A stretch of 59,982 bases of DNA, the filler included. It is 4 parts of 4 records of this genome, joined end to end, with 100 filler letters (N's around TTAATTAATTAA, not from the genome) between each part and the next. Parts side by side here need not be neighbours in the genome. Positions count along the whole stretch, not along the records: positions 18,413 to 33,639 come from SRR31156797_1103; 3 more parts are not named here. The stretch is one strand, 5' to 3'. Positions 18,472-33,639 of the stretch are shown here, in pieces. The translations under genes were made by a program, and so were the position numbers. Numbering within the stretch: position 1 is the first letter of the stretch; every line of letters begins with the position of its first letter. A model generated the notes under the pieces. It was given only the letters and a program-made list of their open reading frames with translations. It was not told where the DNA came from and ran no database searches.

Positions 18472-19452
18472 TCAGGAATATTTTTTGATGTCGGCTGCAA
18501 CACAGTGCTCTATTTCCTTGTTCAATCTGATTTCCAAAAGATTGTTTCGGATCTGCATTTGACGGTCTTTCGGGCTTATCTCCGTTCCGAGGGGCAGCTC
18601 CATTCGCAGGGAAGCGCCGATTTTGTGGCACCTGACCGTGACCCGGTCCCCGTGAAAATCCAGCTTCAGATCTTCTTCCGTGATGCCTTTGACTTCCATG
18701 ATGACCCGGATTTGTTCCCCCTCGTCAAAAATGTCCACCAATCGTTCCTCATTGGGCAGAAAACGCTCTTTTTTCCCGATCAACCACCAGCTGAAAGTGA
18801 TGACTTCCCCGGTTCCCGGATCGGTTCTTCGTTTTTCAAAGGAGAGGATGGCGCACCCCAGCTCTTTTTCGGCAATGGGGTTGATGGTGTCGCGAATGAC
18901 CACCAGGACATGCATGTGGTTCGGGGCCTGGATCAAATCCGCCAGTCGGTTGATCCTGGCGTGTCCGTTCTCCCAGAGATACCATAGAATATCCCTGCCG
19001 TCCGAGTCCAGTTGCGCAGAAATTCTATGGATGGTCGCAATGTCCACTTTCAGAAAGCAAATCTGATGGATTTTCTTTTTCCACGCATGGGTTTGGTTGG
19101 TGATAAGGAGGACTTTTGCGCTATCTTTCAAGGTATTTGCGCGGTGATAGATGATTCTCAGCGCATCCCTTGTTTTCATGGCGTAGTAGTGACGCTCCAG
19201 GCCCAGTTCTTTGATGTTTTCCACCGGGATTTCCAACCGGATGGATGGCCTCAGATAAAAAATGAGACGCTTGTTGGTCAAAAAGCACTGGATGGGCCGC
19301 CAACCGGTGCGGTGGGCTTCCCGGTATCCGCCCTGCTCCTCAAGGATGATTTCCTCCCCCGGCTCAAATTCCGGCTTTGCATTTTCAGGGGAAGGCATAC
19401 TCCTTTTTGCCTGTCTTAAAAAAATCTTTCCAGAACTTGATAAAAATCCCAT
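18472..19452 (-). CDS. PH/GRAM-like + HTH-like + Hsp20 (GvpH-like) multidomain protein
   Basis: N-terminal WRPIQCFLTNKRLIFY (PH/GRAM-like); central ILWYLWENGHARINRLADLI (wHTH-like); C-terminal VDIFDEGEQIRVIMEVKGI...RNNLLEIRL (alpha-crystallin pattern). Confidence 0.65.
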   Translation of the reverse strand: MGFLSSSGKIFLRQAKRSMPSPENAKPEFEPGEEIILEEQGGYREAHRTGWRPIQCFLTNKRLIFYLRPSIRLEIPVENIKELGLERHYYAMKTRDALRIIYHRANTLKDSAKVLLITNQTHAWKKKIHQICFLKVDIATIHRISAQLDSDGRDILWYLWENGHARINRLADLIQAPNHMHVLVVIRDTINPIAEKELGCAILSFEKRRTDPGTGEVITFSWWLIGKKERFLPNEERLVDIFDEGEQIRVIMEVKGITEEDLKLDFHGDRVTVRCHKIGASLRMELPLGTEISPKDRQMQIRNNLLEIRLNKEIEHCVAADIKKYS

Positions 19453-19486
19453 GAGTTGTCAAAAGCTGTGGCGCGGCGACCGGATG

Positions 19487-21196
19487 TCACGCCTTTTCCA
19501 GCAACCTCCGCAGCTGTAGGGTCATGTCTTTTATGTCGTCGGGATTACCTTCAAACAAGGCTTCTTTCAGATCGAAAACAGCATCTTCAATTTGTTTTTC
19601 ATAAGCCTTTGACAGTTTTTTTTCTTTTTCCGCCATGGCGAATTCCGCCGCACGGATCATGCTGTCGCCCCGAATGTTGATCTCGGTTTCTTCCCGCCTT
19701 TTCATGTCCTCTTCGGCAACGGCTTCCGCTTCCCGAATGGCCCGGGCTGCTTCTTCGTCGGATAGCAGGTGGGATGCGTCGATTTCAATTCCCGTCTCCC
19801 GTTCCGTATGTAGCTCCCTGGCGGATATGTGTACAATGCCGTTCACATCAATTTCAAAGGTTACCTCCACCTTCCCTTTTCCCCTTGAAAGGGGCGGAAG
19901 TCCGGTCAATTTGAAGCGGCCCAGGCTGATGTTGTCTTCAGCCATTTCCCGCTCTCCCTGCAGCACGTGGAAATCCATTTCCATCTGGTTGTCTTCCGCG
20001 TTGGTGAAAATCTGCCCTGCGGAGGTGGGAATGGTACTGTTTCGTTCGATAATCCTGGCAAAAAGACCCCCTTCCGTTTCAATTCCCAGGGAAAGGGGGG
20101 TGACGTCCACCAGGACCACATCGTCAATTTCCCCCGTGAGAACGCCGGCCTGAACCGCGGCGCCGATGCCCACCACCTCATCGGGGTTGACGCGGGTAAA
20201 CGGTTTCCGATGAAAGGTCTCTTCCACCAGACGCCTCACGGCGGGCATTCGGGTGGAACCGCCCACCAGCACGACCCGATCAATCTTTTCAGGCGTCAAC
20301 CCGGCATCTTTCAGTGCTTGCAGGGTGGGGGCCAGGAGACCGTCGCGCAAATCAGCGGTGATGGCTTCAAAGGTATCCTGGTCCACGGAGATTTGTGCCT
20401 CTTCGCCCAGGATATGGTTCATATTCAAAAAATGAAGGGGAATATCGACGTATGGTTCGAGAGAAAGGTCCCTTTTGGCTTTTTCTGCAGTCTCTTTCAA
20501 CCGTTCGAGAGTCATCGGATCCACACGGATGTCCTGTCCGTAGCGGGCGGAAATTTGATCCCACAGATAAGCGATCAGTTTTTCATCCCAATCGTCCCCT
20601 CCAAGCAGGGTGTTCCCGTTGACAGCTTTCACGTGAAAGATGCCATCCCCCAGTTCCAGGATGGACACGTCAAAGGTGCCGCCTCCCAGGTCCCATACCA
20701 GGATTGTCTGAATTTTTTCACGGTTCAGTCCATAGGCCAGGGAAGCGGCCGTGGGTTCATTGATGATGCGCATCACATCAAGACCGGCCAGGATTCCCGC
20801 CTCTTTGGTGGCCTGGCGTTGGGTGTCGGTAAAATAAGCGGGCACGGTAATGACAGCCTTTTTTACCGGTATCCCCAAGTAAGTTTCCGCATCGGTCTTA
20901 ATTTTTCGAAGAATAAGCGCGGAAATTTCCTGGGGAGAATAGGCCTTGCCATTGAGGGAGATTCTGTAATCAAGGCCCATATGCCGCTTGATGGAGCTGG
21001 CGGTGTTCTTTGGATTGGCCGCCGCCTGTCTTTTGGCTACCGAGCCCACCAGACGATGTCCAAGGGTTGTTTCCGCCACAACGGAAGGGGTCAGGTTTTC
21101 TCCTTCAGCATTTGGTATCACCCTGGCGTGCCCGTTTTCTATTACGGCAGCCACCGAAAAGGTGGTGCCCAGGTCTATGCCGATTGCTTTATCCAT
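19487..21196 (-). CDS. dnaK: Hsp70/DnaK chaperone (cluster-associated paralog)
   Basis: GIDLGTT, TVPAYF, INEPTAA, DLGGGTFD, VGGSTRMP, DVTPLSLG. Real start is ATG 21196 (MDKAIGIDLG), overlapping the upstream gene's stop. Confidence 0.93.
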   Translation of the reverse strand: MDKAIGIDLGTTFSVAAVIENGHARVIPNAEGENLTPSVVAETTLGHRLVGSVAKRQAAANPKNTASSIKRHMGLDYRISLNGKAYSPQEISALILRKIKTDAETYLGIPVKKAVITVPAYFTDTQRQATKEAGILAGLDVMRIINEPTAASLAYGLNREKIQTILVWDLGGGTFDVSILELGDGIFHVKAVNGNTLLGGDDWDEKLIAYLWDQISARYGQDIRVDPMTLERLKETAEKAKRDLSLEPYVDIPLHFLNMNHILGEEAQISVDQDTFEAITADLRDGLLAPTLQALKDAGLTPEKIDRVVLVGGSTRMPAVRRLVEETFHRKPFTRVNPDEVVGIGAAVQAGVLTGEIDDVVLVDVTPLSLGIETEGGLFARIIERNSTIPTSAGQIFTNAEDNQMEMDFHVLQGEREMAEDNISLGRFKLTGLPPLSRGKGKVEVTFEIDVNGIVHISARELHTERETGIEIDASHLLSDEEAARAIREAEAVAEEDMKRREETEINIRGDSMIRAAEFAMAEKEKKLSKAYEKQIEDAVFDLKEALFEGNPDDIKDMTLQLRRLLEKA

Positions 21197-21812
21197 GGTT
21201 GTTTTCGTTTTTCTGGAACTGTTTGAGTGTATGTATGATTTTTTCTTCTGTGAACGGTTTGTCGATAAAACTGTGAACCCCTTTTTCCTTTGCATCCACC
21301 ATCCGTTCCTCACTGCCATAGGCACTGATGATCACCACAAAAGTTTCTGAACTTTTTTTCTTTATGATGGGGAAAATATCCATTCCGTCGCCATCGGGCA
21401 GTTTCAGGTCCAGAAAGATGAGGTCGGGTTTTTTTCTCAGCGATTGAATGCCCTCATGAATGCTGTTGGCGGTGCATACGTCATAGCCTTTTTCCCTCAG
21501 GGCGTTTGCCAGAAGCCAGCACAGATCCTCTTCATCGTCGATGATCAAAATGTTTTTGATCTTTTTTTTGGCAAACAGACGAGGTTTTTTTTCGGATTTT
21601 TTTCTTCTCAGGCGTTCATTTTCCCGCTCTTTAAAGTAGGATTTCAGCTCTTTCAGCTCTTCGGGTTTGCGCCATCCTGAAAGACCACTTCTCCATACCA
21701 GGGCTTCATCTTTTTTGATCATCCCCCGCAATATCCAGCTCTTAAGTCTTGAGTGATAGATCAAGCGGTAGGTGTCCGCCCCCCGCCTTACGTCATATTT
21801 AAATTCTCTCAC
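21189..21812 (-). CDS. Response regulator with N-terminal GYF_2 (DUF4339)-like domain
   Basis: LKSWILRGMIKKDEALVWRSGLSGW matches the GYF_2 pattern; intact receiver IIDDE / FLDLKLPD / ISAYG / DKPF. Confidence 0.8.
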   Translation of the reverse strand: MREFKYDVRRGADTYRLIYHSRLKSWILRGMIKKDEALVWRSGLSGWRKPEELKELKSYFKERENERLRRKKSEKKPRLFAKKKIKNILIIDDEEDLCWLLANALREKGYDVCTANSIHEGIQSLRKKPDLIFLDLKLPDGDGMDIFPIIKKKSSETFVVIISAYGSEERMVDAKEKGVHSFIDKPFTEEKIIHTLKQFQKNENNHG

Positions 21813-21830
21813 AGGCGTTCTCCCGGTTCA

Positions 21831-22559
21831 TTATACTGGCAAAGAGATGGTAAACACCGAACCCTTTTTCCAATGGTTGGTATTGCTTTCGACGCCGATG
21901 GTTCCGCCGTGACTCACGACGATGCCGTAGGTCATGGAGAGTCCCAGCCCGACTCCCGATGTTTTGGTGCTGAAAAAAGGATCGAATATCCTGATAATGT
22001 CTTCCTCCGGGATGCCGGCGCCGGTATCCTGGATTTTAACTATGAAAAAATCCCTCTCAATCCCGGTGACGACGGTCATGACGCCGCCATCAGGCATGGC
22101 GTCCAGGGCGTTAATCATGACGTTTGAAAAGACCCGGGTGATCTGTTCCCTGTCCACGCTGATGACCGGGAAGCCCGGGCAATAGGTTTTTGTTATTTCG
22201 ATCTGTTGGGAGGTAATCTTGGCCTTGATGGAATCCAGCGTGCTTTCCAGTATCCCGTTGATGTCGTGGGGTTGAATGTTGAGTTTGGGCGGTCTCGCGC
22301 AGTTTAGAAGTTCGGTGATCAAAAAATTAATCCGTTCCGTATTTCGAATGATGATCTCGATATGTCTTGCCCAGGGGCTATCCCGGGAAAAAGCCTCCTT
22401 CAGTTGCTTCACCGACATGGATACATTGGTCAGGGGGTTTCGGATTTCATGGGCGATGCTGGCTGCGATGCGGCCTGTAAAAGCCAGCCTCTCGGAGAAA
22501 CCGGACTCTTCCTTTCCGGTTTTTCGTTCGTTGGGTTTTGATTCTGTTCGTGAATCCAT
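21831..22559 (-). CDS. Histidine kinase lacking a sensor domain (HisKA + HATPase)
   Basis: IAHEIRNPL, NVMINALDAM, DTGAGI, FDPFFSTK, GVGLGL; only about 25 aa precede the H-box helix. Confidence 0.9.
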   Translation of the reverse strand: MDSRTESKPNERKTGKEESGFSERLAFTGRIAASIAHEIRNPLTNVSMSVKQLKEAFSRDSPWARHIEIIIRNTERINFLITELLNCARPPKLNIQPHDINGILESTLDSIKAKITSQQIEITKTYCPGFPVISVDREQITRVFSNVMINALDAMPDGGVMTVVTGIERDFFIVKIQDTGAGIPEEDIIRIFDPFFSTKTSGVGLGLSMTYGIVVSHGGTIGVESNTNHWKKGSVFTISLPV

Positions 22560-22605
22560 CGCTTTTTTATCCTCTCATGGGTGAAGACCCGTTATTGCCG
22601 AGACC

Positions 22606-23328
22606 CTAAGCCAAAGCCTGAAGTCTTTGAATCCGTTTTATCGCGACGGGGCTGGTCCAGCCACATTTAGTACAGCCGTTTTCCAGCAGTGTTTGAACAA
22701 AATCGAGCCTGCCGCACCGGGGACAAGTATCCGTTTCTTTTTCCGAAAGGTCCTGAACGTCGTATCCTGCATCTAAAATGGCGGTTTCCAGGGCGGTTCT
22801 TAATCGCTGAACATTCAGCGCGTTAACTCGGTGCCACCGGTTTCCTGCCAGCAGGAGATGCAGCTCCTGCCTTGCCCTTTTTTCAGGAGAAGCGTTCTTT
22901 TTTTTGGTGGCCAGTCCCTTGATGTTATCAAGAGGCGTTTCAAACAGGATTTTGTCGAAATCTTCATGATAGAGGAGCAAACGACGGGTCGTCAGGTAAA
23001 GGCGGCCATATTGCCAGGTTTTGTATAACCCTTCACTTGAATGGCATGCCCCCGGCATTTTGAGGAGCATTTTTTCCCCGGCGATCAAATTATCATGCTT
23101 TTTCTTCCTGCTTTCCCGTTCCCACGCCCTGCTTTTTTCGTCCCACGCCTGCATGACCCCGTATTTCAACATGGTTTCCATGCCCGCCAATGCCGCCCGG
23201 AGGTTGACCCCGATCAATGGAATGCCCGCAACGGATACAATGAGGTCCGCCTGGATGACAAGGCCCTTGTCCAGGACACGATCCAGCAGGTCTACCAGGG
23301 TTGCGTGGGGCTCTCGTTTGGGGGTCAT
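22606..23328 (-). CDS. Gas vesicle GvpA/J/S-family protein fused to PH/GRAM-like domain and Zn ribbon
   Basis: LVDLLDRVLDKGLVIQADLIVSVAGIPLIGVNLRA (GvpA family); GRLYLTTRRLLLY; CPRC...GCTKCGWTS. Confidence 0.85.
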   Translation of the reverse strand: MTPKREPHATLVDLLDRVLDKGLVIQADLIVSVAGIPLIGVNLRAALAGMETMLKYGVMQAWDEKSRAWERESRKKKHDNLIAGEKMLLKMPGACHSSEGLYKTWQYGRLYLTTRRLLLYHEDFDKILFETPLDNIKGLATKKKNASPEKRARQELHLLLAGNRWHRVNALNVQRLRTALETAILDAGYDVQDLSEKETDTCPRCGRLDFVQTLLENGCTKCGWTSPVAIKRIQRLQALA

Positions 23329-23337
23329 GAGTCTTTT

Positions 23338-24369
23338 TCAAACAAAGGAATAGGGCGGCCACGGGCCGGTGTAGCGGACGGAAAACCCCTCACGATTGTC
23401 AATTCCCTCAAGGGCTTCTCCCAGCTTTCCGCTTTGATCCTTCGGGAGCAGGCAGGACAGATTCAGGAGCATCTGCCGGCCTTCATCCTCGGCTCTTTTT
23501 GTCTTTTCCACACGGAGGTCGTCGGCATAGGCCTTGATCTTTTCATAAAATTCCTGAAAACACCGATCCGCCATGCGGGCCATCTCATTCTTTAACAGTT
23601 CCGTCAGCTTCTGGCGATACATATAGGCGATTCCCTTGGGTTTTGTCTGAATCTCTTTCTGCAATGCCTTAATTTCAGAGCTTTTTTCGCTGACATTGTG
23701 GGCCATGATACCGGTTTTCCAGAAAATTTGTACACCATATTCGGCCCTGTTCCTGATTTTGGCCATTTTTGATGTCAGATTGTCGTAATCGGTTTCAATC
23801 CATTTTTCCATGTTTTCTTTGGGGTTGGCATCCCCTTTGCTGCAGATGATGGTGTCAAAACCCATGGGGATGATTGTCCCGAATTTTTCCGCGGCCCCAT
23901 CCAGCACCTTTTGGTGGGTCAGAACCCACTGCTTGACTTTTTCCGGGTCGTCCGACCGATACGGTTCGGCAGTACAGTTATGAACCACCGCGGAAAGGTC
24001 ACGGAAGGGAAGGGTGTAGACCTCATTTCCTTCTATTCCGATGCTTCCGAAGTTGACGGATTCGCTTTCATCGGCAATGCAGTAAAGATACAAACCGATT
24101 TCCGATTCCGGATTCCGGATTGCGGAATTATCGGGGGCAGGGGAGGGGATGGGTTCAGTATGGGGATTTTCCCGGGTCGGCGCCGGTTCTTTCGGCGTTT
24201 CAGGATTCCGTTCCAGGCATTCACCCAGGATATGGGTGATTTCCTCTCGAATGGCGGTTCTGAGTTGGGGCATAAGGGATGCCGTCACAATCCCTTTGAT
24301 ATCCTCCCGACTTTCCGCCAGCATCTCCCGGATTTCCCGGTGTACCATTTTCTTGATGATATCTTCCAA
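23338..24369 (-). CDS. GvpL/GvpF-family gas vesicle protein with N-terminal extension
   Basis: GLYLYCI, HQKVL, IPMGFDT, TGPWPPYSFV. The start is probably TTG 24369 or ATG 24348; the track's 24465 overlaps gvpK. Confidence 0.85.
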   Translation of the reverse strand: MEDIIKKMVHREIREMLAESREDIKGIVTASLMPQLRTAIREEITHILGECLERNPETPKEPAPTRENPHTEPIPSPAPDNSAIRNPESEIGLYLYCIADESESVNFGSIGIEGNEVYTLPFRDLSAVVHNCTAEPYRSDDPEKVKQWVLTHQKVLDGAAEKFGTIIPMGFDTIICSKGDANPKENMEKWIETDYDNLTSKMAKIRNRAEYGVQIFWKTGIMAHNVSEKSSEIKALQKEIQTKPKGIAYMYRQKLTELLKNEMARMADRCFQEFYEKIKAYADDLRVEKTKRAEDEGRQMLLNLSCLLPKDQSGKLGEALEGIDNREGFSVRYTGPWPPYSFV

Positions 24370-24388
24370 TTGCCCGTTTCTTGTCCTT

Positions 24389-24700
24389 TTAATACTCGGC
24401 TTCTTCCCCTCTTTCCGGGTTGATGATCTTATCCAGCAGATCGTCCACAATGCCGTCCAGCCCATCCCGAACCGATTTAACCGATTCGGTGATGCCCTGC
24501 TCCATCTTCATTTCTTCAATGGCCGTGTCCAGATCCATGAGGGCTTCACCCAGTCGATTGGTCTCTTCTTCCGTCAGGGTGCCCCCTTCCATGCGTTTCA
24601 GGGCCTGGAGCCTGAGTGCATCTTTGATGATTTCCACCAGGGCCACCACCAGGCCCAGAACGCCGTGCTTGAGGTTTTTTTCGTCGATATGGATGGACAT
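24389..24700 (-). CDS. gvpK: Gas vesicle protein GvpK
   Basis: GVLGLVVALVEII..ALRLQALKRMEGGTLTEEETNRLGEALMDL matches the GvpK pattern. Confidence 0.85.
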   Translation of the reverse strand: MSIHIDEKNLKHGVLGLVVALVEIIKDALRLQALKRMEGGTLTEEETNRLGEALMDLDTAIEEMKMEQGITESVKSVRDGLDGIVDDLLDKIINPERGEEAEY

Positions 24701-24755
24701 GGCTCAGTTGTCAGGGGGCAGTTGCCAGGGGGCAGCTTACAAAAAGCTATGCCCC

Positions 24756-25109
24756 CTAACCGCTGATCACTTCTTTCGCTTTGGCGCTGATCCAACCGCA
24801 CCAGGGACATCCCGTGGTCATGAGGTCTTCCATGACGACGCGTTTCTCACACTGGGGGCAGTACTCTTTGGTGACGACCGCTTCTTCCCAGGCGGGGGTT
24901 TTAAGCGTTGTCCCCGATGGGAATTCCAGGCCGTATTTGGCGGCGGTTTCAAAAGATGCCAGTGCGGCCCTGATCTTGATGCCCAGCAGTTCCACGCCCA
25001 CCACCGATACGGCGATGTCCGCGTTGATGACAAGGCCCTTATCCAGGATCCTGTCGATCACGTCCGCCAGTCCGCCGTCCTTTTCATCCCTCCTAGGTTC
25101 CATGACCAT
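24756..25109 (-). CDS. gvpJ: GvpJ-like (GvpA family) protein with C-terminal Zn ribbon
   Basis: LADVIDRILDKGLVINADIAVSVVGVELLGIKIRAALASFETAAKYGL; CPQC...GCPWCGWIS. Confidence 0.85.
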   Translation of the reverse strand: MVMEPRRDEKDGGLADVIDRILDKGLVINADIAVSVVGVELLGIKIRAALASFETAAKYGLEFPSGTTLKTPAWEEAVVTKEYCPQCEKRVVMEDLMTTGCPWCGWISAKAKEVISG

Positions 25110-25112
25110 GGC

Positions 25113-25898
25113 TTAGTTCACTCCCCTATTCCAGCTGTTATGCCGCTCTGGGGCCGATTCCCTTACATGAACGACGCCCTTGCCACTGCATTTGAGGCAG
25201 GTCAAAGCGGTTCCCTGTTCCGCTCCCGATCCTCGGCACTGGCTGCAGACACCGATGGGAGGATGAACCGACACCACCCCTTTGCCGCGGCAGACCGGGC
25301 AAAGCCGTCCCGTCCGCCGTTCCATTCCCCTGCCCTTGCAGTAGGCGCATGACACCGCCGGCGGCGCCATGGCGACCCGGCCGGTCCCCCGGCAGACGGG
25401 GCATTGGGCCCCTTTTGCTTTTTTCCCGGTCCCCCGGCAAAAGCCGCAGGTTAAGGTTTTTTCGTTGAGCAGGGATGTTTGGGCTCTACCGTTGAATCCG
25501 CCGGTCCGTCCCCTGTTTCCATAATTAATGGTACTCCAGGTCACATCCTCCTGGCCGGGTTTTAAGAAGCCGCTTTCCGTATGGTTGGGGTTTGTTCGGA
25601 CCGATTTGAAAGAGCGCCACTGGAATTCTTCCCTATGGATTTTCCCGTGGGGAATTGTCCTTCCGGTTTCAATGGCCGTATCCCCATGGGGCCACCCCAG
25701 GGCTTTTTTCCCTTTTGGCGTAATCCTAAAGCGACCACGGGTTTTCCGGGCGAGATGTTCGCTTTTGATGAGGTTCGCGCACAGAACCGTGGCATAAGAA
25801 GGGTCAATCCCCAGTTGTCGGCTCACCAGACGGGTGGTGGTTTCACCATTTTCCTTTTCCACGGTTTTCAGCGCCTTCATTTCGCTTCCTGAAACCAT
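25113..25898 (-). CDS. Winged-helix-like + DnaJ-type zinc-finger repeat protein
   Basis: N-terminal TTRLVSRQLGIDPSYA...RITPKG (wHTH-like); six CxxCxGxG repeats. Confidence 0.75.
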   Translation of the reverse strand: MVSGSEMKALKTVEKENGETTTRLVSRQLGIDPSYATVLCANLIKSEHLARKTRGRFRITPKGKKALGWPHGDTAIETGRTIPHGKIHREEFQWRSFKSVRTNPNHTESGFLKPGQEDVTWSTINYGNRGRTGGFNGRAQTSLLNEKTLTCGFCRGTGKKAKGAQCPVCRGTGRVAMAPPAVSCAYCKGRGMERRTGRLCPVCRGKGVVSVHPPIGVCSQCRGSGAEQGTALTCLKCSGKGVVHVRESAPERHNSWNRGVN

Positions 25899-26239: not shown

Positions 26240-26479
26240 TCACCCCTCTTCCTTCATCTTTCGTATCATTTGGAGCTGTTCCATGAGGCCTGCTTCCCGT
26301 TTCTCATATTCTTCCTCACTGATTTCTTCCATTTCAAACTGCATCTGGAGATGGAGCAGCCCTTCGTGAATCTTTGATTCATCGGTCATTTCGTTATAGG
26401 CGGCGTCCCGCAGTTTTTCACCCAGCCAGATGGTGAGCTTCAGGGGCGAAAACAGGATATCGTCTAGAATGAACGCCAC
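26240..26479 (-). CDS. gvpG: Gas vesicle protein GvpG
   Basis: LDDILFSPL..IWLGEKL..AA..E...L..LQMQFEMEEISEEEYEKREAGLMEQL; GTG start after GGAG. Confidence 0.88.
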   Translation of the reverse strand: MAFILDDILFSPLKLTIWLGEKLRDAAYNEMTDESKIHEGLLHLQMQFEMEEISEEEYEKREAGLMEQLQMIRKMKEEG

Positions 26480-26489
26480 AAGAGTTCTC

Positions 26490-27242
26490 CTACCATCTTA
26501 CTACGATTTCAACGAAATTGCAGGGGGGGATGGGGCCCACATACTTCAGGGTCATTTTCTCCGCATACTGCTCTGCGATTTTTTCCACGGCGAGATCGAA
26601 CGCTTTTTCCTTTTCTTTTTCCACCAGAAAAGCGGCGTTTGTAATCATTTGGTCTCCGAAGTGGTTGTTCAACTTTCTTTCCACCCAGAGTTTTTCAAGG
26701 GGGGCCAGGACGGATTGTTCTTTCCGTTCCTTCCAGGCCTCAAAGGCATTTTTCACCATTTCTCCCAGGCGGACCTGATCCCGCTGAACCCCGCCCCGCC
26801 GTTTGAGCAGTCGGTCGCGCAGTCGACTGATGTCCGTGTTTTGAGTTGCAATTTCATGGAAAACCGGCTTGATATCCTTCCAGATGGCTTTGATTCCCAA
26901 TTCAACCTTTCCCTGCATGTAGGCTAAAGTCTCGGTTAGTTCGCTCTCCCGCTCTTTCAGGAGCTTTTCCCGGATCGGGTCCAACCCTTCACTGACCGTT
27001 CCGAATTGCACGGGAAGCATGGGGTATTGTTCCATGACCGTTTCCATGACCTTCTGGTGGGCCATGGTATTGGCCCGGGTCACCGGGTACTGTGTGACCG
27101 GTGAATCGCTGATGACCGCGCCCAGTCCGTCATGAACTACGGTATGGACTTCGCTCTTTTCTTTGCCGATGCCCATTGGACCGAAGTTCGCTTCCCGGTC
27201 CGTTTCAATGATGGCGTATATGTATTGGCCTTCCCGGGTCAT
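26490..27242 (-). CDS. gvpF: Gas vesicle protein GvpF (GvpL/F family)
   Basis: GQYIYAII, AHQKVME, LPVQFGT, GKVELGIK, NAAFLV, GPIPPCNFV; immediately upstream of gvpG. Confidence 0.88.
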   Translation of the reverse strand: MTREGQYIYAIIETDREANFGPMGIGKEKSEVHTVVHDGLGAVISDSPVTQYPVTRANTMAHQKVMETVMEQYPMLPVQFGTVSEGLDPIREKLLKERESELTETLAYMQGKVELGIKAIWKDIKPVFHEIATQNTDISRLRDRLLKRRGGVQRDQVRLGEMVKNAFEAWKERKEQSVLAPLEKLWVERKLNNHFGDQMITNAAFLVEKEKEKAFDLAVEKIAEQYAEKMTLKYVGPIPPCNFVEIVVRW

Positions 27243-27256
27243 GAAAATGGTTCCTC

Positions 27257-28276
27257 CTAATTAGCGACCGCCCTTATGTCTACCCAGGCTTTTATATCCT
27301 TTTCCCGGAAGGAACATGACGGGTCCCGGCAGTAGTCCGTCACAAGCTTATAGGCATGGTTAATTTTTTCGTAATGCTTTTGAACATCCCGGTCTCCCGG
27401 AAATTTGTCCGGATGGAATTCCTTGGTCAGTTGCCAGTAATGATTCCGGATTTCCTGCCGGGTGGTTTCTTCTTCCAGTTGAAGCAGTTTTTGTGCATTG
27501 CGCAATTGTTCACAGTCGACGGTTTTGACCTCAAAGGTTCGAAAACTGTAGGGCGGAAGTGGACCGATAATGCGAAAATTGATCCGGTCTTCAAAGTGAC
27601 GGTCCAGCCCGGCGACAATGCCTTCCATCCGGGCCGCATCTTTTCTCTTAATGAGAAAAGCCGCGTTAATGATCATGCCGTCATCCATGAGGGTGTGAAC
27701 AGCGTGGTTTTCCGCCAGGTTCAGCAAAGGGGGCATGATGACCGACTGAAGGGATTCCCGTTTCTGGTCCAGAAGGGTCTTTATCTGTTTTCCGGCGTTG
27801 ATGCGCATTTCCAGAAGGTCATTGTCCGATTGCTCCGCCGCATTTTCCTTAATCGCCTTGATTTCGTCGGTTTGTCCGATTTCCGTGATGATGGCGTTCA
27901 ATTCGGGCCAGAAAGCCACCACATCCAGCTCGATTTTGTTTTTCATTTCTTTCAGACTTTGATCAATCCGTTCTTTTCCACATTGCAGAACCCTGACAAC
28001 CGCGGCATCCCCATCCAGCAGTGTCCCGAATTTAACGGGGATTATGGGACGATCCGTCATCACCTTTTCGATGACCGACTGGTAAACCGTCAGATTGCGC
28101 AGGAGGGTTTCTTTGGGTAGATTGTCAAAGCCTTTGTGCGGCAGGTTGCTCACAAGGGCGGAAATTCCCTCAAACGACAGGGCGTACAGTTCCCCGCCGG
28201 CAATTCCCGTTCGGCCGAACCGGCCTTGTTCCTCTCCTTGAATGAAGCCGTAAATGGTTTTTCCGTCATCTCTCAT
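27257..28276 (-). CDS. GvpL/F-family protein with C-terminal J-domain
   Basis: GvpL/F core ends at GPLPPYSF; followed by AQKLLQL...IRNHYWQLTKEFHPDK...YEKINHAYKLV with an intact HPD motif. Confidence 0.88.
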   Translation of the reverse strand: MRDDGKTIYGFIQGEEQGRFGRTGIAGGELYALSFEGISALVSNLPHKGFDNLPKETLLRNLTVYQSVIEKVMTDRPIIPVKFGTLLDGDAAVVRVLQCGKERIDQSLKEMKNKIELDVVAFWPELNAIITEIGQTDEIKAIKENAAEQSDNDLLEMRINAGKQIKTLLDQKRESLQSVIMPPLLNLAENHAVHTLMDDGMIINAAFLIKRKDAARMEGIVAGLDRHFEDRINFRIIGPLPPYSFRTFEVKTVDCEQLRNAQKLLQLEEETTRQEIRNHYWQLTKEFHPDKFPGDRDVQKHYEKINHAYKLVTDYCRDPSCSFREKDIKAWVDIRAVAN

Positions 28277-28297
28277 TTTATGTTTCTCCGGAGCCTT

Positions 28298-30427
28298 TCA
28301 GGATTTGTTCATCTCCCTTAAGGCCTGTTGAAAATGATCGGCTTCGATGGTAAAGCGGGAATGGTCGTCCTCGCCGCTTTCGATGAATTTTCGGATGGCA
28401 TTCATGGCGGCCTTTTCGCAGATGGCCTCCAGATCGGCCCCCACCATGCTCCGGGAGGCTTTGGCCAAAGCGGCAAGGTCCACGTCTTTGCTCAAAGGTT
28501 TTCCCCGTGAGTGAACTTTCAGGATTTCAAGTCTTGCCGCTTCCTTTGGAACGGGGATTTTAAAAAGAAAATCAAACCTGCCCGCTCTGAGCAGGGCCTC
28601 GTCAATAATATCGAGGCGGTTGGTGGCGGCCAGGACCATGATCCCTTTCAGTTCCTCGATGCCGTCCAGTTCGGTCAGAAACTGGCTGATGACCCGGTCC
28701 GCCACATGGGATGAACTGTCCATGCCCCGTTTGGGAACCACGCTGTCGATTTCGTCGAAAAAAATGATGCAGGGAGAGGCTTGCCGGGCCTTCTTGAAGA
28801 TTTCCCGGACCCCTTTTTCACTCTCCCCCACCCATTTGCTCATGAGTTCGGGCCCTTTTACCGAGATGAAATTGACTTCCGATTCCGATGCCACCGCCTT
28901 GGCCAGCAGGGTCTTGCCGGTGCCGGGAGGACCATGGAGCAGGATCCCTTTGGACGGGGTGGCGCCGGCGTGTTTGAACAGGTCGTTGTATTTCAGGGGC
29001 CATTCAATGGTTTCCTTGAGCACCCGCTTGATGTTTTCCAACCCCCCCACGTCCGCCCATTTAACATCCGGTACTTCGGTGAAGACTTCTCGAATGGCGG
29101 AGGGTTCAACGGACTTGAAACCCTCCATGAAGTCGTCCATGGAAACCTGGAGCTCCATCAGGGTTTCATAGGGGATTTCCTCCAGTTCAAAATCGATTCG
29201 GGGAAAGATCTTCCTGAGGGTGGCCATGGCCGCTTCCCTGGAGAGGGCCTCCAGGTCGGCCCCCACGAATCCGTGGGTGATTTCGGCCAGACGCTTCACA
29301 TCCACGTCCTCCGAAAGGGGCATGCCGCGGGTATGCACATCCAGTATGGCCAGCCGCCCGTTCATGTCCGGAATGCCGATTTCAATCTCCCGGTCGAAAC
29401 GGCCCGGTCTCCTGAGTGCCGGGTCCAGGACGTTGGGAATGTTGGTGGCGCCGATGACAATAACCTGCCCCCGTGAGGAGAGTCCGTCCAGCAGGGCGAG
29501 CAGTTGGGCCACCACCCGTTTTTCCACCTGTTTTTCGCCCCCCATTTCCTCCCTTTTGGGTGCAATGGCGTCGATTTCATCCAGGAAAATGATGCTGGGG
29601 GCATGGGATGTGGCTTCGTCAAATATTTTTCGAAGATTGGCCTCGCTCTGGCCGTAAAATTTGTGCATGATCTCAGGACCGCTGATGGTCCTGAAATAAG
29701 CGTCGGTCTCGTTGGCCACGGCCCGGGCGATGAGGGTCTTGCCGCACCCGGGAGGCCCGTGAAGGAGCACCCCCTTGGGGGGGTCGATGCCCAGCCGTTC
29801 AAAGACCTGGGGGTATTTCAGGGGGAGTTCGATCATCTCCCGGATTTTCCTTATTTCCCTGCCCAACCCGCCGATATCTTCATAGGAGATGCGGGTTTTG
29901 CCCTCGCCCGTATCCTTTTTCTGCTGGATTTCCATTCCCGTCTGGGGATGGATCATGACCACTCCCGATGGACGTGTGGAAACCACCTTGAAATCCTGGG
30001 TTCGTGAGCCGATCAACCGTGCCCGCACCAGGTCCCCTTCCACCAGGGGGAGCCCTTCCAGCAGGCTTCCGATATACCGGGCGTCGTATGACCGCATGGC
30101 GGTGAGGGGGGCCACTACGATTTTCCGGGCCGGCTGAAAGTCGCAGACGGCTATTTTTACTTTTTCGTCGATTCCCACCCGGGCGTTTTCCCGGGTGATG
30201 CCGTCCAGCCGGATCAACCCTTTTCCCCTGTCGTCCATATACGCCGGGAGCACCTTGGCGACGGTTTGCCGTTTCCCTTCCACCGTGACCACATCACCCA
30301 CTTGAACGGCCAGTTTTTCAAAATCCCCCGGGTCAAACCGGACAATGCCGCGGCCCACGTCCTTGGCGGTCGCTTCCACAACTTTCAGGATCAGGGGTTT
30401 TGTTGTTGCTTTCTTTTCAGAAGTCAT
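28298..30427 (-). CDS. CDC48/VAT-family double AAA+ ATPase
   Basis: N-domain DVGRGIVR; D1 GPPGCGKT / FLDEID / [11 protein letters not shown]2 GPPGTGKT / FFDEID / LLRAGRFD. Confidence 0.93.
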
Positions 30428-30454
30428 GGAAAATCCTTGTTGGTCATTGGAGGG

Positions 30455-31207
30455 TTACAGCTTTATCTCAATGCTGATGAAATTGAAGGGTGGTGCCGGT
30501 CCCACAAGCTTGAAATCCGCTTCCTTTTCATATGCATCCGCCAGGTCTTCCACCAGAAAATCGAACTGCTTTTCCCTTGTCCTGTCGATGAGGAATACGG
30601 CGTTTAAAAACATATCGTCCCCCACCGTGTCGTTCGGGCGTGAATCAAGTGCCAGCCGTTTGCATTGCCGGAGAATTTTTTCAGTGATGCGCTCTTTTTT
30701 TTCATCCAGGGCCGCTTTTACGGCTTTGCCAAGCGCAATCTTTTCATCGCTGTCCGCTTTTCCACCCTGTTTTGAAATCCTGTTTTTGATTTCTTTTACG
30801 CCGGGGTCGGTTCGGCCGATGTCCTCAAAAATTTGACCCATGTGGGTCCAGCGCCCCTTGAGCCCCATCTCCACCTTGTTGTCCAGATCCCGAAGCAACC
30901 CTTTAAATTCCCCGTATTGCCTTCTGAGGAAGGTGCGAACTTCCTCGGCGCTGTTGGCGATGGTGCAGAACCGCACCGGCAACACCGTGTAGTCTTTCAT
31001 TACCTGTTCAATAACTTTTTCGTGAGCCATGAGATTTTCGGGATCAATGACGTATTGGGTGACCGGTGAGCTGCTGATGACCGCGCTGATGTCTTTAAAT
31101 CCTATGGTGGATACGAAATCGCCCCGTTTCCCGATGCCGATGGGGCCGAAATTCCTGCCTTCATTGGCGTTTATGATGCAGTAGACGTATTTCCCTTCTT
31201 TGACCAT
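30455..31207 (-). CDS. GvpL/GvpF-family gas vesicle protein
   Basis: GKYVYCII, AHEKVIE, VLPVRFCT, NKVEMGLK, NAVFLI, GPAPPFNF. Confidence 0.88.
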   Translation of the reverse strand: MVKEGKYVYCIINANEGRNFGPIGIGKRGDFVSTIGFKDISAVISSSPVTQYVIDPENLMAHEKVIEQVMKDYTVLPVRFCTIANSAEEVRTFLRRQYGEFKGLLRDLDNKVEMGLKGRWTHMGQIFEDIGRTDPGVKEIKNRISKQGGKADSDEKIALGKAVKAALDEKKERITEKILRQCKRLALDSRPNDTVGDDMFLNAVFLIDRTREKQFDFLVEDLADAYEKEADFKLVGPAPPFNFISIEIKL

Positions 31208-31239
31208 GATTTTCCGGGTCCTCCTCGGAATTCAAACCC

Positions 31240-31554
31240 CTAGTATTCGACTTTCATTACCCTGAGCCCCCCCTTGGGTGAGGTTTTCAGGTCCTGAGAA
31301 CCGATCGGGGGCGTTCTTCTTCTGATCCCTAATCCTGCCTCCAGTTCTTCTATTCTCAACCTGATGTCTCTGATTCGCCCTTCCACCACCGCCTTCCTTT
31401 TGTCTACACTGGTGAGTTCTCTCCGGGACAGGGCCAGGTTGTTTTTCAAAAGGTAAAGTTCCCCGTCAACGGACCTCTCCGCTTTGGGCATGGAGCGGTG
31501 TTTCATCCCCATGAGCGTTTTTATGGAAGCAAGTGATCTAATTTCATTTGCCAT
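31240..31554 (-). CDS. Small coiled-coil protein after gvpN, GvpV-like
   Basis: ATG 31554 follows AGGAGG; IRSLASIKTL...LYLL...coiled coil. The position directly after gvpN matches GvpV in other clusters (inference). Confidence 0.55.
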   Translation of the reverse strand: MANEIRSLASIKTLMGMKHRSMPKAERSVDGELYLLKNNLALSRRELTSVDKRKAVVEGRIRDIRLRIEELEAGLGIRRRTPPIGSQDLKTSPKGGLRVMKVEY

Positions 31555-31622
31555 ATGGTCCCTCCTTTGTACGGCCCGCAGCACCGGTCATGGCAGTGTC
31601 AAAAGGACGTTAATTATTCACC

Positions 31623-32540
31623 CTAACAGATATCATTGATCAGTTCTGAAATGACCTGTTTCACTCTTTTCTGGCTTCCCACCGTTCCGATCCGACTGGT
31701 TTCCGATGCCAGGATATCCATGCAGATCTGGCGGAAAACCGGATCATCCTTATTTACTTCGGCCTGCCTGACGGCAAGGGTTTTTGCAATCATGATGCAG
31801 CCCCGGATGGTTGGGGCGAATTCACAGGTGTCCGAGTCCCTCAATCCCCTGACGATCTTAACAATTTTTCCAGCGTCTCCGTTGTCGAGGCCGGACTTGA
31901 ACTGGGTGATGCGCATTTCAGTTTCTTCATCGAAATAATCGACATCCAGGGTCACCATCCTGTCGCGCAGGGCATCCTGACTTCTGTGGACACCGGCGTA
32001 TTCCTCCGGGTTACTGGTGAAGATGGCTGTGAAGTCCGTATGGACCTTCAGATAGTTCCCATCTCCCTGGCGGGGGGTGGGCAGGTCGAGCATCCTTTCC
32101 TGTAGAACCGAGAGAAGCACGTTGTTGGTTTCGGGCCTCGATCGCGTGAATTCATCGTAAATCAGTGTAAATCCGTTTTTACAGGCAACCGTCAGGCGGT
32201 TGTCCGACCAACTCTTCTGCATGTCCTCTTCGGTTTTGAGGACGGTATGAACGTAATTGTCCACCACCTTGCGACTGCGAAAGCCGGTCTCTGCCCCCAC
32301 AAGGTCCGATGTGGAAAATTCCTCATCCCCGTGAATCATGACCACCGGTCTCCCGATCATGGCCGCCACATGCATGGCCAGGGTGGTTTTACCGGTTCCC
32401 GAGATGCCCCGAAAATGGATGGGAAACCCTGCGGCGATAAAGGCCATGGCCCTTTCCGAAACATCTTTTACATAACTTGTTTCCACGAAGTTCGGCAGAG
32501 AGCGAGGCTCCAGAACCGTTGTATTTCCCTGAAAAGACAT
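31623..32540 (-). CDS. gvpN: Gas vesicle AAA ATPase GvpN
   Basis: GISGTGKT, DNYVHTVLK, DNRLTVAC, YDEFTRSRPETNNVLL, TSNPEEYAGVH.QDAL.DR. Confidence 0.95.
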   Translation of the reverse strand: MSFQGNTTVLEPRSLPNFVETSYVKDVSERAMAFIAAGFPIHFRGISGTGKTTLAMHVAAMIGRPVVMIHGDEEFSTSDLVGAETGFRSRKVVDNYVHTVLKTEEDMQKSWSDNRLTVACKNGFTLIYDEFTRSRPETNNVLLSVLQERMLDLPTPRQGDGNYLKVHTDFTAIFTSNPEEYAGVHRSQDALRDRMVTLDVDYFDEETEMRITQFKSGLDNGDAGKIVKIVRGLRDSDTCEFAPTIRGCIMIAKTLAVRQAEVNKDDPVFRQICMDILASETSRIGTVGSQKRVKQVISELINDIC

Positions 32541-32622
32541 AAAATCCTCCTTTTTTTGGAAGGCAGCAAGCAGGATACGGAATGCGGTAACGACTCACTG
32601 CCTACCGCCTAACATCAACCGC

Positions 32623-32964
32623 CTACCCCTTAATAACCACTCCCATGCCGCCGCAAACCAGGCAGGGGAGATATTGGCCAGACATCCATCCCCTTCCCTT
32701 GCAGTCTGGGCAAGATTCAATCGGTTCCTTGATGTTGACCATCCCTCTGCCTTGACAAACAGTGCAAACCATTCGCCGGTGAAGATGGACCCCGGTGCCG
32801 CTGCAATATGCACATTCTCTGGCGGGCTCCCGAATCCTCACCTTTCCCTTGCCTCCGCAGACCTGGCAGCGAGACTCCACGGAAAGGAGTTCAAACGGGT
32901 CCTTCCCGGTTCCCCGGCAAAAAGCGCAATTAAGAGTGATGACCCCTTCGGCTGTCATGTTCAT
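32623..32964 (-). CDS. Stand-alone DnaJ-type zinc-finger repeat protein
   Basis: Six CxxCxGxG repeats in 113 aa, no J-domain; GGAG RBS. Confidence 0.8.
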   Translation of the reverse strand: MNMTAEGVITLNCAFCRGTGKDPFELLSVESRCQVCGGKGKVRIREPARECAYCSGTGVHLHRRMVCTVCQGRGMVNIKEPIESCPDCKGRGWMSGQYLPCLVCGGMGVVIKG

Positions 32965-33080
32965 TCTCCTACAGCGCGGTTCTGGTGAATGGGTTACGGC
33001 AAGCGGTATGTAAGAGTTCAGCGCCCATGTGGTACGTTCCGACCTCCGCCAACCGCATGCCGTTTGCTGCGTACCGTCAA

Positions 33081-33638
33081 CTAAAAAATGTAATAAATGG
33101 AGTTTTCCTTTCTCACTTCATCTTCATCCAGGAGTTCTCTCATGACGGGGATCAGGGAACGCCAGTTTTCAACTCCCACGGCTTCGGCAATCTCCACCAT
33201 CCTTAATCCGTCCGGGGTATCTTCAAGAAGGCTCAGAATTTCTCCGTTCAGATCTTCCCTGCCAGGCAATTCCTCTTCTTCCACTCCAAGATCCTGTTCC
33301 TCTTCTTCAGTTTCCGGTTCTTCCGCCACTTTTTCATCTTCTACGGCTTCTTCAGCCCAGGTTTCTTCCTCTTCCTGCTCTTCTTCCACAACCTCTGAAA
33401 CAGTCCCTGTTTCAACCTTTGTTTCCACTTCCACGGGGCTCGTAATCGTCATGGCTCCGCCGGCAGTTCGCATGGCCGAGAGGATTTGGTTCCAAGCCTT
33501 GACTGCTTCATTTCGGTCTCTTTGGAGTTCACCCATAATGCCCGCTACGCTGGCCGACATGTCCGTTTTGAAGGTTGCGAGGTTTTCTCTCAACCGATCG
33601 GACATATCTTTGAGTTCGGCCTGAGTGGAAGTTTTTCT
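33081..33638 (-). CDS. C-terminal part of a GvpC-like protein with acidic linker and terminal wHTH-like domain (5' truncated)
   Basis: Frame stays open to the contig edge (RKTSTQAELKDMSDRLRENLATFK...); helical N-part, Glu-rich linker, ILSLLEDTPDGLRMVEIAEAVG...; upstream of gvpN, where gvpC usually sits. Confidence 0.5.
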   Translation of the reverse strand, partial: RKTSTQAELKDMSDRLRENLATFKTDMSASVAGIMGELQRDRNEAVKAWNQILSAMRTAGGAMTITSPVEVETKVETGTVSEVVEEEQEEEETWAEEAVEDEKVAEEPETEEEEQDLGVEEEELPGREDLNGEILSLLEDTPDGLRMVEIAEAVGVENWRSLIPVMRELLDEDEVRKENSIYYIF

Positions 33639-33639
33639 G

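Follow-up and report, generated by a model that had tools for sequence, protein, structure and literature searches.

Why should a gas vesicle (gvp) gene cluster carry an Hsp70, a J-domain protein and a Cdc48 ATPase of its own, and do these chaperones serve the vesicle proteins encoded around them? The question is raised by a contig within the 59,982-nucleotide stretch of DNA analyzed here (the window), whose 19 open reading frames (ORFs), all on the minus strand within positions 18472-33639, are separated by gaps of at most 116 bp and include two start/stop overlaps (response regulator/dnaK and gvpK/gvpL). A first-pass annotation made from the letters alone had described one tightly packed minus-strand run, and this description holds. 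Its proposal that the chaperones form a dedicated system for GvpA-type proteins is supported by the conservation of the arrangement, the presence of an HPD-bearing J-domain on a GvpF-type protein, the paralogy of DnaK and the finding of a sole Cdc48. Judging from gene content and order, we favor, at somewhat better than even confidence, a client-dedicated Hsp70/J-protein module and a small heat-shock protein (sHsp)/Cdc48 module for GvpA-family proteins that would act in biogenesis, in delivery and quality control.

The contig holds the larger part of a single operon-like gvp cluster and comes from an uncultured bacterium resembling Desulfobacteraceae; its closest relative is L001, a metagenome-assembled genome (MAG) contig labeled uncultured Desulfobacteraceae, with orthologous proteins 67-93% identical. 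Family calls were made by Pfam and NCBIfam profile searches against curated cut-offs. The Gvp core is present as GvpN, GvpG, GvpO, GvpK, a GvpJ-type protein, a GvpM-like protein and four GvpF/L proteins, and the accessory assembly genes for GvpN, GvpF/L, GvpG, GvpK and GvpO all scored above curated cut-offs in Pfam or NCBIfam. Both collections agree with the interleaving of gvpN, four gvpL/F, gvpG, gvpO, gvpJ and gvpK with DnaK, a J-domain, two zinc-finger proteins and Cdc48 that had been read from the sequence; the earlier gene list was essentially right, save for a histidine kinase/response regulator pair that it overlooked. The start of the GvpL-type gene is uncertain, its first ATG overlapping gvpK. 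Two proteins of the contig belong to the Gas_vesicle family (PF00741), one of GvpJ and one of GvpM type, and no plain gvpA lies within its 15,227 bp. In L002, L018, L003 and L004, two gvpA genes (67 aa, identical within each locus) and a coiled-coil gene lie just upstream, and the gvpA of the present cluster was probably lost at the contig break.

The J-domain of the cluster is carried by a GvpF-type protein. It scored 42.4 bits with Pfam DnaJ (cut-off 27.8) and has its HPD motif at residues 288-290; residues 264-316 of the fusion matched the E. coli DnaJ J-domains 1BQZ/5NRO_B (about 2-5e-5), and the fusion also matched the GvpF structures 6L5D (3e-12) and 4QSG (1e-8). In NCBIfam it is nearer to GvpF than to GvpL (4.9e-18 vs. 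3.8e-13). By its J-domain and HPD motif the fusion is a J-domain protein (Hsp40 co-chaperone). It is not a class A (type I) DnaJ, as the J-domain follows the GvpF domain and the zinc-finger repeats reside on two separate proteins, and its scores against the NCBIfam DnaJ equivalog models fell far under their cut-offs. The database held 494 relatives at E ≤ 1e-3, and among the best 120 of these, 119 contained both PF06386 and PF00226. H288, P289 and D290 are invariant in an alignment of 27 sequences (A1); in a second alignment of 25 sequences (A4) there is no exception at D290, and conservation at H288 and P289 is 90% or higher. Of the loci in which the match extends to the J-domain (44 in all), 42 have the HPD motif. 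One fusion homologue, P0044 (51% identical), is source-labeled as a Methanosarcinaceae archaeon MAG; none of the 45 fusion-anchored genome loci described below is archaeal.

The cluster DnaK has the full Hsp70 architecture, PF00012 matching the long ORF from residue 47 to residue 610 with 591 of its 599 model positions. It passes NF001413 (723.9 bits vs. a cut-off of 648) and fails TIGR02350 (709 vs. 822.55). The long, GTG-started form of the ORF overlaps the regulator gene, and the ATG at 21193 gives the N-terminus common to its homologues. In five of five locus-bearing genomes at least one further full-length Hsp70 (~50% identity) accompanies the cluster DnaK, and the gvp-linked DnaKs are without the C-terminal tail of 45-65 residues found in the housekeeping copies. 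A quick maximum-likelihood tree of 30 rows included 20 gvp-linked and eight non-gvp sequences, the latter being seven full-length housekeeping-type DnaKs from three phyla (sources: Desulfatiglandales, an unclassified delta-proteobacterial MAG, Dehalococcoidales and Eubacteriales) and one 922-aa Hsp70. The eight non-gvp rows group in a single clade (SH-aLRT 100) that contains none of the 20 gvp-linked rows; 16 of the 20 form a clade of their own (support 93), and the placement of the other four is not settled. The cluster DnaK is therefore an extra paralogue outside the housekeeping clade, not the housekeeping orthologue.

By Pfam, the cluster Cdc48 comprises CDC48_N, CDC48_2 and two AAA domains, with Walker A motifs at residues 224 and 499 and Walker B motifs at 279 and 554, and its best match in the PDB is VAT (5G4F, 6.6e-226, residues 11-682). 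With VAT of Thermoplasma acidophilum and archaeal Cdc48 it shares the N-domain and the D1 and D2 rings. Its pore loops, KFYGQSE and KWVGESE, have aromatic residues in both rings; the first aligns with KYYGQSE of VAT and the second is identical in both proteins. It differs from VAT in coming from a bacterium and from a gvp operon; no 20S proteasome gene lies in the cluster, and its C-terminus reads ...REMNKS. The proteasome-docking HbYX motif carries a penultimate tyrosine, which this C-terminus does not have. The Cdc48 family cut-off was exceeded once per genome in five of five locus-bearing genomes, each time by the gvp-linked gene, and in only four of 14 control genomes. For the Cdc48 matches in genomes G002, G004 and G005, one or two in-frame TGA codons were reported within the matched stretch, which may fall in the gene or in the extended frame.

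The 326-aa protein at the downstream end had been called an Hsp20-domain protein, and at the domain level this assignment is correct. NCBIfam Hsp20 matched residues 229-314 (7.1e-12, below the equivalog cut-off), Pfam HSP20 gave no match at E ≤ 0.01, and an atlas search placed the protein in HSP20 clusters (score 0.97). AlphaFold (AF2) models of this protein and of the GvpM-like protein were built from nine-sequence alignments (A2, A3) and were of moderate confidence, with mean pLDDT values of 69 and 63, respectively. In the former, residues 235-313 adopt an alpha-crystallin fold (Z 11.8, root-mean-square deviation 2.0 Å over 79 residues, 29% identity to Sulfolobus Hsp20.1, 4RZK), and a PH/GRAM-like domain occupies about residues 22-136 (Z 12.2 to MTMR2, 1LW3, over residues 25-134; Z 11.8 to the Vps36 GLUE domain, 2CAY). 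The protein is a domain-level member of the Hsp20 family with an atypical architecture.

A PH fold recurs in the shell-family protein that had been described as an A/J fusion. The shell-family domain of that description is present, with GvpM as its best match (3.3e-28), followed by a PH fold at residues 75-190 of the AF2 model (Z 13.0 to 4TYZ, 12.8 to 1EAZ) and a two-CxxC zinc ribbon (CxxC at 202 and 219). All 50 rows listed in the fold search were of PH, PTB, GLUE or GRAM type. The model is confident for residues 81-231, and the GvpA-like N-terminus is not confidently modeled. The two PH-like domains thus appear alike at the level of predicted structure; common descent is unsupported by BLASTP between the two proteins, which gave no significant common module (best relevant segment E = 12). 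The GvpJ-type protein likewise ends in a two-CxxC zinc ribbon (CxxC at 84 and 101).

Conservation of the arrangement was surveyed with the fusion as anchor, taking one genome per species, and neighbors were identified by tblastn with the proteins of the present cluster. Among the resulting 45 loci, 33 had Cdc48, 22 had DnaK and 17 had both. When only the 21 loci with at least 2.5 kb of upstream and at least 8.5 kb of downstream sequence were counted, Cdc48 was present in 18, DnaK in 17, both in 16 and neither in two (L036 and L045). The first-pass annotation had held that its proposal would fail if the chaperone genes were not conserved beside gvp genes elsewhere; they proved to be conserved. 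All 19 proteins were matched, in identical order, in L002 (an 8.16-Mb chromosome) and L018 (a 1.27-Mb contig), both labeled Desulfatiglandales. The gvpK-gvpL-gvpM-dnaK block is kept in MAGs labeled Thermodesulfobacteriota, Chloroflexota, Aerophobota and Bacillota, with labels that include Dehalococcoidia, other Chloroflexota, Eubacteriales, Geobacter and Candidatus Aerophobus. Among 43 loci in which Cdc48 and the fusion occur together, 38 have the Cdc48 gene immediately upstream of the fusion gene (37 of 42 distinct loci, L007 and L065 being the same contig). L036, which is identical to L112 (27,382 bp), comes from a MAG labeled Dehalococcoides mccartyi and contains the J-fusion, two zinc-finger genes and two gvpN genes (one split), with no Cdc48 or DnaK within 20 kb.

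Co-occurrence was also examined from an independent anchor, as the first-pass annotation had suggested: GvpN (TIGR02640) was sought in 401 sampled genomes from each of the phyla of G001 (the genome of L002) and G003 (the genome of L034). In the Thermodesulfobacteriota sample (the phylum of G001), GvpN occurred in 29 of 401 genomes, 26 of them above cut-off. Beside gvpN were Cdc48 in seven, the J-fusion with HPD in seven, DnaK in five, all three in four and at least one in nine. None of the three was found in 15 genomes, seven of which had the full 20 kb examined, and five further genomes were too truncated to call. The genomes with none of the three have a compact gvp layout of kinase, regulator, gvpA copies, gvpN, F, G, K and J, with the zinc-finger gene adjoining gvpN in most. 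GvpN was 60-88% identical to the present copy in seven of the nine chaperone-bearing genomes (lower in G268 and G275) and 48-55% identical in the compact type. In the Chloroflexota sample (the phylum of G003), GvpN occurred in 24 of 401 genomes, accompanied by Cdc48 in 17 (one partial at a contig edge), by the J-fusion with HPD in nine and by DnaK in one. At least one of the three was present in 19 of the 24; of the five genomes with none, three had gvpN on contigs of 3.4-7.3 kb. Of the two main gvp architectures, the chaperone type is the rarer in Thermodesulfobacteriota and the commoner in the Chloroflexota sample.

Across these loci the chaperone kit falls into two separable parts. One is a Cdc48 module, near which a small gene for an alpha-crystallin domain alone is often found; the other is a J-fusion module, which may or may not include a private DnaK. 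Cdc48 without fusion or DnaK is found in L086 and many Chloroflexota loci, and the fusion without Cdc48 in L112 and L116. That modules come and go among clusters would fit a generic stress buffer, in which ordinary stress proteins became linked to gvp genes through the proteotoxicity of GvpA and would protect the cell as a whole, without binding vesicle proteins specifically; gvp-adjacent Hsp20 genes have been interpreted along these lines (in the accessible parts of PMC7325909 and PMC2963123), and gas vesicle expression is proteotoxic in E. coli (PMC12848028, as excerpted). Such a buffer is hard to reconcile with the covalent GvpF-J fusion, conserved across a large protein family, with a DnaK lineage separate from the housekeeping copies, with an in-cluster Cdc48 that is the only one in five of five genomes, with gene order maintained across phyla, and with PH-fold modules common to the shell-family protein and the Hsp20-domain protein. 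We consider this explanation improbable.

A client-dedicated system acting in biogenesis is favored because the chaperone genes stand among the assembly genes, on one strand and with very short gaps. We propose that the GvpF domain of the fusion would bind GvpA-type protein soon after its synthesis, in the manner of GvpF in Halobacterium and Bacillus megaterium, and that its J-domain would then trigger ATP hydrolysis by Hsp70, so that the client is clamped by the cluster DnaK or, in clusters without a private DnaK, by the housekeeping DnaK. The Hsp70/J module would thereby keep the shell protein soluble and pass it to the growing vesicle, and Cdc48 with the alpha-crystallin protein may hold, unfold or extract shell protein that is misassembled, off-pathway or collapsed. 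Published work, as far as the accessible text of each paper goes, is consistent with such a client: GvpF is the only GvpA partner in Halobacterium (PMC7688916) and has been proposed as a transient chaperone of GvpA2 in the B. megaterium system (PMC11445434), A/J/M-family Gvp proteins without chaperones end in inclusion bodies (PMC9501494), and GvpA-like proteins or gas vesicle expression cause proteotoxic stress in E. coli (PMC12848028).

Two known chaperone systems offer analogies. The proposed Hsp70/J module resembles HscB-HscA-IscU, in which a client-dedicated J-protein and a dedicated Hsp70 paralogue are encoded with the client; the shared logic would be a one-client J-protein, a specialized Hsp70 paralogue and co-encoding with the client pathway. 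The likeness is not homology: unlike HscA, the cluster DnaK scores 723.9 bits for DnaK and 563 for HscA models, and unlike in HscB the client-binding part is a GvpF domain, not the HscB C-domain, with Cdc48 and an sHsp domain added. As a whole the set would mirror IbpA/B, DnaK-DnaJ-GrpE and ClpB in its three classes of component, an sHsp domain, an Hsp70/J-protein pair and a hexameric threading motor of the AAA+ class, Cdc48 here taking the position of ClpB and a client-specific J-protein that of DnaJ. It departs from that system in having a Cdc48/VAT-type motor, a client-specific J-protein and modules that are often separate, and in two absences taken up next.

Several points weigh against a dedicated machine of this kind. 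In ClpB the M-domain couples to and docks DnaK; the cluster Cdc48 has no ClpB-type M-domain, so that cooperation between Hsp70 and Cdc48 is an analogy only. No GrpE-type exchange factor was recognized in the cluster by Pfam or NCBIfam. The separability of the modules does not support a fixed three-part machine, and a private DnaK lies beside gvpN in just one of the 24 Chloroflexota genomes. Because compact clusters without the kit are common in the phylum, accounting for 15 of 29 genomes, the kit is accessory and no general requirement for gas vesicles. A single origin of the gvp-linked DnaKs is compatible with the quick tree, four of whose rows float, and the tree allows no stronger statement. 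Finally, co-transcription of the cluster is predicted from gene spacing; a promoter and terminator scan of the contig was at chance (10 promoter-like elements vs. 9.6 expected, 30 terminator-like elements vs. 24.2 expected).

The same proteins could act at the other end of the life of a vesicle, the sHsp, the DnaK/J-fusion pair and Cdc48 recognizing collapsed or unwanted vesicles and extracting and unfolding their subunits for re-use or degradation. Recycling of this kind would make the organelle reversible in slow-growing anaerobes unable to dilute debris by growth. An sHsp, an Hsp70 with its J-protein and an AAA+ motor are together what a disaggregase consists of; motors of the Cdc48/VAT type act as unfoldases and segregases, and the aromatic pore loops are kept in both rings here; Cdc48 is moreover the most widespread of the three add-ons, present in 17 of 24 Chloroflexota genomes. 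The interleaving with biogenesis genes at gaps of at most 116 bp implies, however, that the chaperones would be made while vesicles form, the cluster encodes no protease partner, and the NKS end of Cdc48 is without the HbYX tyrosine. Collapse of vesicles in a native producer induced clpB, dnaK, a J-protein and htpG, yet the same preprint (10.64898/2026.05.31.729101), in its accessible text, reports no specific binders of collapsed vesicles, and the GvpF type to which the J-domain is fused binds monomeric GvpA early in experiments (PMC7688916, PMC11445434 and PMC9501494, each in part). We regard recycling as a serious, though less likely, alternative for the main role. A bolder form of it, in our view unlikely, is a reversible organelle in which an operon-encoded sHsp/Hsp70-J/Cdc48 machine, aimed by the fusion and by PH and zinc-ribbon tags, extracts GvpA from collapsed or misassembled amyloid-like shells and returns it to new vesicles; if true, it would provide the first bacterial Cdc48 with a defined client and a natural case of Cdc48 replacing ClpB as the partner of Hsp70.

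The histidine kinase and response regulator encoded between gvpM and dnaK raise the further possibility of a switch, a post-translational circuit in which the kinase, an output-less regulator and a translationally coupled DnaK would gate vesicle formation through chaperone availability, making the chaperones themselves regulators. By Pfam the kinase consists of HisKA and HATPase_c only, without a sensor domain, and the regulator has no detected output or DNA-binding domain, a weak N-terminal GYF_2 match (0.002) lying below cut-off. The regulator stop codon overlaps the dnaK start (21189-21193), as it also does in L002, and the order kinase-regulator-DnaK is kept in L001-L005, L018 and others. 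The pair is nonetheless absent between gvpM and dnaK in L014, L022, L031, L032, L034, L037 and L042; as it is missing from many clusters that keep DnaK, it represents a lineage-specific insertion, and a switch would leave both the GvpF-J fusion and Cdc48 unexplained. We therefore find it very improbable. Within a client-dedicated system for GvpA-family proteins, the dnaK-coupled kinase/regulator pair may, together with the PH folds and the zinc ribbons of GvpJ and GvpM, serve as docking or control elements.

The two zinc-finger proteins, of 113 and 261 aa, contain six CxxCxGxG motifs each; DnaJ itself has four. The 113-aa protein, encoded directly upstream of gvpN, matched the cysteine-rich domain of E. 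coli DnaJ (PDB 1EXK, 1.3e-4), and the Pfam and NCBIfam searches also gave anti-TRAP matches. Plant BSD2, which acts in Rubisco assembly, and anti-TRAP are small CxxCxGxG zinc-finger proteins without a J-domain, and some such proteins are assembly chaperones. The cluster proteins differ from these in their six motifs and in the pairing of the 113-aa gene with gvpN. Homologues of the 113-aa protein, matched over 86-99% of its length, adjoin gvpN in many clusters, both chaperone-rich and most compact ones, which suggests that this protein is functionally paired with GvpN.

Two further ORFs had been named after Gvp proteins. The one called GvpC-like does stand at the gvpC position and encodes helical repeats, although it is a 3′ fragment only, with its frame open through the last base of the contig, and neither Pfam nor NCBIfam returned a GvpC family match. 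GvpC is an outer-surface protein with tandem amphipathic helical repeats, of 33 residues in cyanobacteria. The fragment aligns, at 43% identity (2e-40), with residues 333-514 of an L002 protein of 516 aa that has a repeat period of 105 residues and only sub-threshold apolipoprotein-like Pfam matches. The GvpV-like name for the 114-aa ORF found no backing in Pfam, NCBIfam or any named atlas family; the atlas search returned only unnamed clusters of ~105-aa proteins, commonest in Cyanobacteriota (score 0.93), and tblastn homologues (29-79% identical) were seen only in chaperone-type clusters.

Set against canonical gvp clusters, namely those of Halobacterium (gvpACNO/DEFGHIJKLM), Anabaena/Dolichospermum, B. 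megaterium and Serratia 39006, the present cluster shares the core of N, F/L, G, J, K, an M-like protein and O, and its syntenic loci also share 67-aa gvpA genes in tandem and, after them, a helical-repeat protein at the gvpC position. Beyond that core it has the private DnaK, the GvpF-J fusion, the VAT-like Cdc48, two zinc-finger proteins, the PH plus alpha-crystallin protein, zinc ribbons on GvpJ and GvpM, a PH fold on GvpM and the kinase/regulator pair, extras that are absent from the canonical descriptions in the accessible text of PMC7688916, PMC11445434, PMC9501494 and PMC10344784. The nearest precedent is an Hsp20 gene with an ArsA-type ATPase within gvp clusters, presumed to have a chaperone or energizing role (Castillo and Saier 2010, PMC2963123; a Hakuba actinobacterium, PMC7325909; both in part). 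Those reports list Hsp20 and ArsA only, and in their accessible portions DnaK, Hsp70 and CDC48 are unmentioned in PMC2963123 and DnaK is unmentioned in PMC7325909; here the Hsp20 domain stands behind PH-like and helical domains, and Pfam detected no ArsA homologue in the contig.

A full-text literature search, with subscription-only papers and supplements outside its scope, returned no description of an Hsp70, a J-domain fusion or Cdc48 in gvp clusters, in line with the remark in the first-pass annotation that its author was aware of no such characterized system. The single paper found to mention both "gas vesicle" and "J-domain" concerns, in the text available, maize heat-shock proteins. The cluster lineage is widespread and apparently undescribed.

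How GvpA remains soluble between the ribosome and the growing vesicle, and what becomes of collapsed shells, are open questions in the field. The chaperone role of GvpF in current models derives from interaction data alone, according to the available text of PMC11445434 and PMC9501494, and a natural GvpF-J fusion with an adjoining private Hsp70 and Cdc48 offers independent genomic support for that idea. The cluster also supplies a bacterial Cdc48 for which a client is probable, another client-dedicated Hsp70 system and a defined set of test proteins. Proteotoxicity limits heterologous vesicle expression of the kind used in ultrasound reporters, and in E. coli most clusters do not work (PMC10344784 and PMC12848028, as excerpted). 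Since one screen of gvp clusters deliberately avoided those rich in non-gvp genes (PMC10344784, as excerpted), a natural chaperone kit would be an untried route to better expression.

Whether the arrangement could be an artefact depends on how the window was put together. It is a pseudomolecule in which three N44-TTAATTAATTAA-N44 spacers link four contigs, and the gvp contig, which holds the whole finding, is flanked by two of these spacers, so that the genes of neighboring contigs are not its genomic context. Its GC content is 0.523, compared with 0.31, 0.30 and 0.35 for the other three, and its tetranucleotide correlation with them is 0.17-0.19, compared with 0.91-0.99 among themselves. The contig probably comes from a different organism than the rest of the bin, and this likely mis-binning is without effect on the finding. 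Among sequencing runs, a single DNA run, probably the source, was found to contain the stretch, and no RNA run was listed. A chimeric or mis-assembled contig, or a cluster foreign to the genome with which it was filed, might be suspected from this foreign composition, from joins that consist solely of artificial spacers and from the doubtful bin assignment; the recurrence of the gene order on the 8.16-Mb chromosome of L002 and the 1.27-Mb contig of L018 shows that the arrangement is real whatever the binning, and we give an artefact hardly any credence. On the same grounds of identical gene order, internal chimerism of the gvp contig was rejected. The idea that a GC-rich island had recently entered an AT-rich genome by horizontal transfer was also considered and rejected, there being only spacers and no physical junction. 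The last ORF of the preceding AT-rich contig, at 17649-18368 (+), enters the spacer and is thus truncated by the contig end.

Table 1. Features of the gvp contig and the artificial joins of the window (positions are those of the window).
Feature	Position	Strand	Support or remark
Artificial contig spacer, N44-TTAATTAATTAA-N44	18313..18412		
Single gvp contig holding the whole finding	18413..33639		15,227 bp; GC 0.523; contig breaks at both ends
326-aa protein, PH/GRAM-like + helical + alpha-crystallin (Hsp20)	18472..19452	-	
Cluster DnaK paralogue, 568 aa from ATG at 21193	19487..21193	-	Pfam HSP70 2.7e-195
Response regulator, receiver domain	21189..21812	-	Pfam Response_reg 2.2e-25, residues 88-196
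Short soluble histidine kinase, 242 aa	21831..22559	-	Pfam HisKA 30-89, HATPase_c 136-241
GvpM-like protein + PH fold + zinc ribbon, 240 aa	22606..23328	-	NCBIfam GvpM 3.3e-28, residues 1-67
GvpL-type protein	23338..24465	-	NCBIfam GvpL 4.1e-56; Pfam GvpL_GvpF residues 124-375
GvpK	24389..24700	-	Pfam GvpK 1e-17
GvpJ-type shell-family protein, 117 aa	24756..25109	-	Pfam Gas_vesicle 6.7e-16; NCBIfam best GvpJ 1.4e-29
261-aa protein, DnaJ-type zinc fingers in C-terminal half	25113..25898	-	Pfam DnaJ_CXXCXGXG 1.9e-11; N-terminal half without assignment
GvpO	25910..26176	-	Pfam GvpO 7.6e-19
GvpG	26240..26479	-	Pfam GvpG 7.8e-19
GvpF/L paralogue, 250 aa	26490..27242	-	Pfam GvpL_GvpF 3.3e-60
GvpF-type domain + C-terminal J-domain fusion, 339 aa	27257..28276	-	Pfam GvpL_GvpF 1.2e-48, DnaJ 7.4e-11
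Cdc48/VAT-type double-ring AAA+ ATPase, 709 aa	28298..30427	-	TIGR01243 945.9 bits vs. cut-off 802.65
GvpF/L paralogue, 250 aa	30455..31207	-	Pfam GvpL_GvpF 1.8e-61
114-aa conserved protein, no family	31240..31584	-	
GvpN, AAA+ ATPase	31623..32540	-	NCBIfam TIGR02640 346.9 bits vs. cut-off 266.8
Free-standing DnaJ-type cysteine-rich zinc-finger protein, 113 aa	32623..32964	-	Pfam DnaJ_CXXCXGXG 7.1e-11
Helical-repeat protein, 3′ fragment, gvpC position	33081..33639	-	Last repeat, acidic linker, conserved C-terminal domain; N-terminus lost
Artificial contig spacer, N44-TTAATTAATTAA-N44	33640..33739		
Artificial contig spacer, N44-TTAATTAATTAA-N44	52947-53046		

An Rfam scan of the contig returned no match at gathering scores, and of the six plus-strand ORFs over the cluster, five have no Pfam family. 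The sixth, a 419-aa ORF antisense to dnaK (19967-21226, +), matches PF10712 "NAD-GH" at 2.5e-65. This family, we take it, derives from a long antisense frame of hsp70 genes, and the ORF is most simply read as a shadow of dnaK, not a gene.

Two observations concern the gvpA end of related loci. In L002, positions 83-1882 (+), directly upstream of the two gvpA genes, encode a protein of at least 599 aa that matches PF12531 "DNA-K related protein" (3.9e-89) and is cut by the start of the locus; in L003 and L004 a kinase/regulator pair stands where L002 has this gene. The GvpA N-terminus reads MA(M/V)EK...MAS..SL in most chaperone-type clusters and (V)QKS(T/M)DSSSL in compact clusters and a few chaperone-bearing loci (L086, L091), the remainder of the protein being nearly identical.

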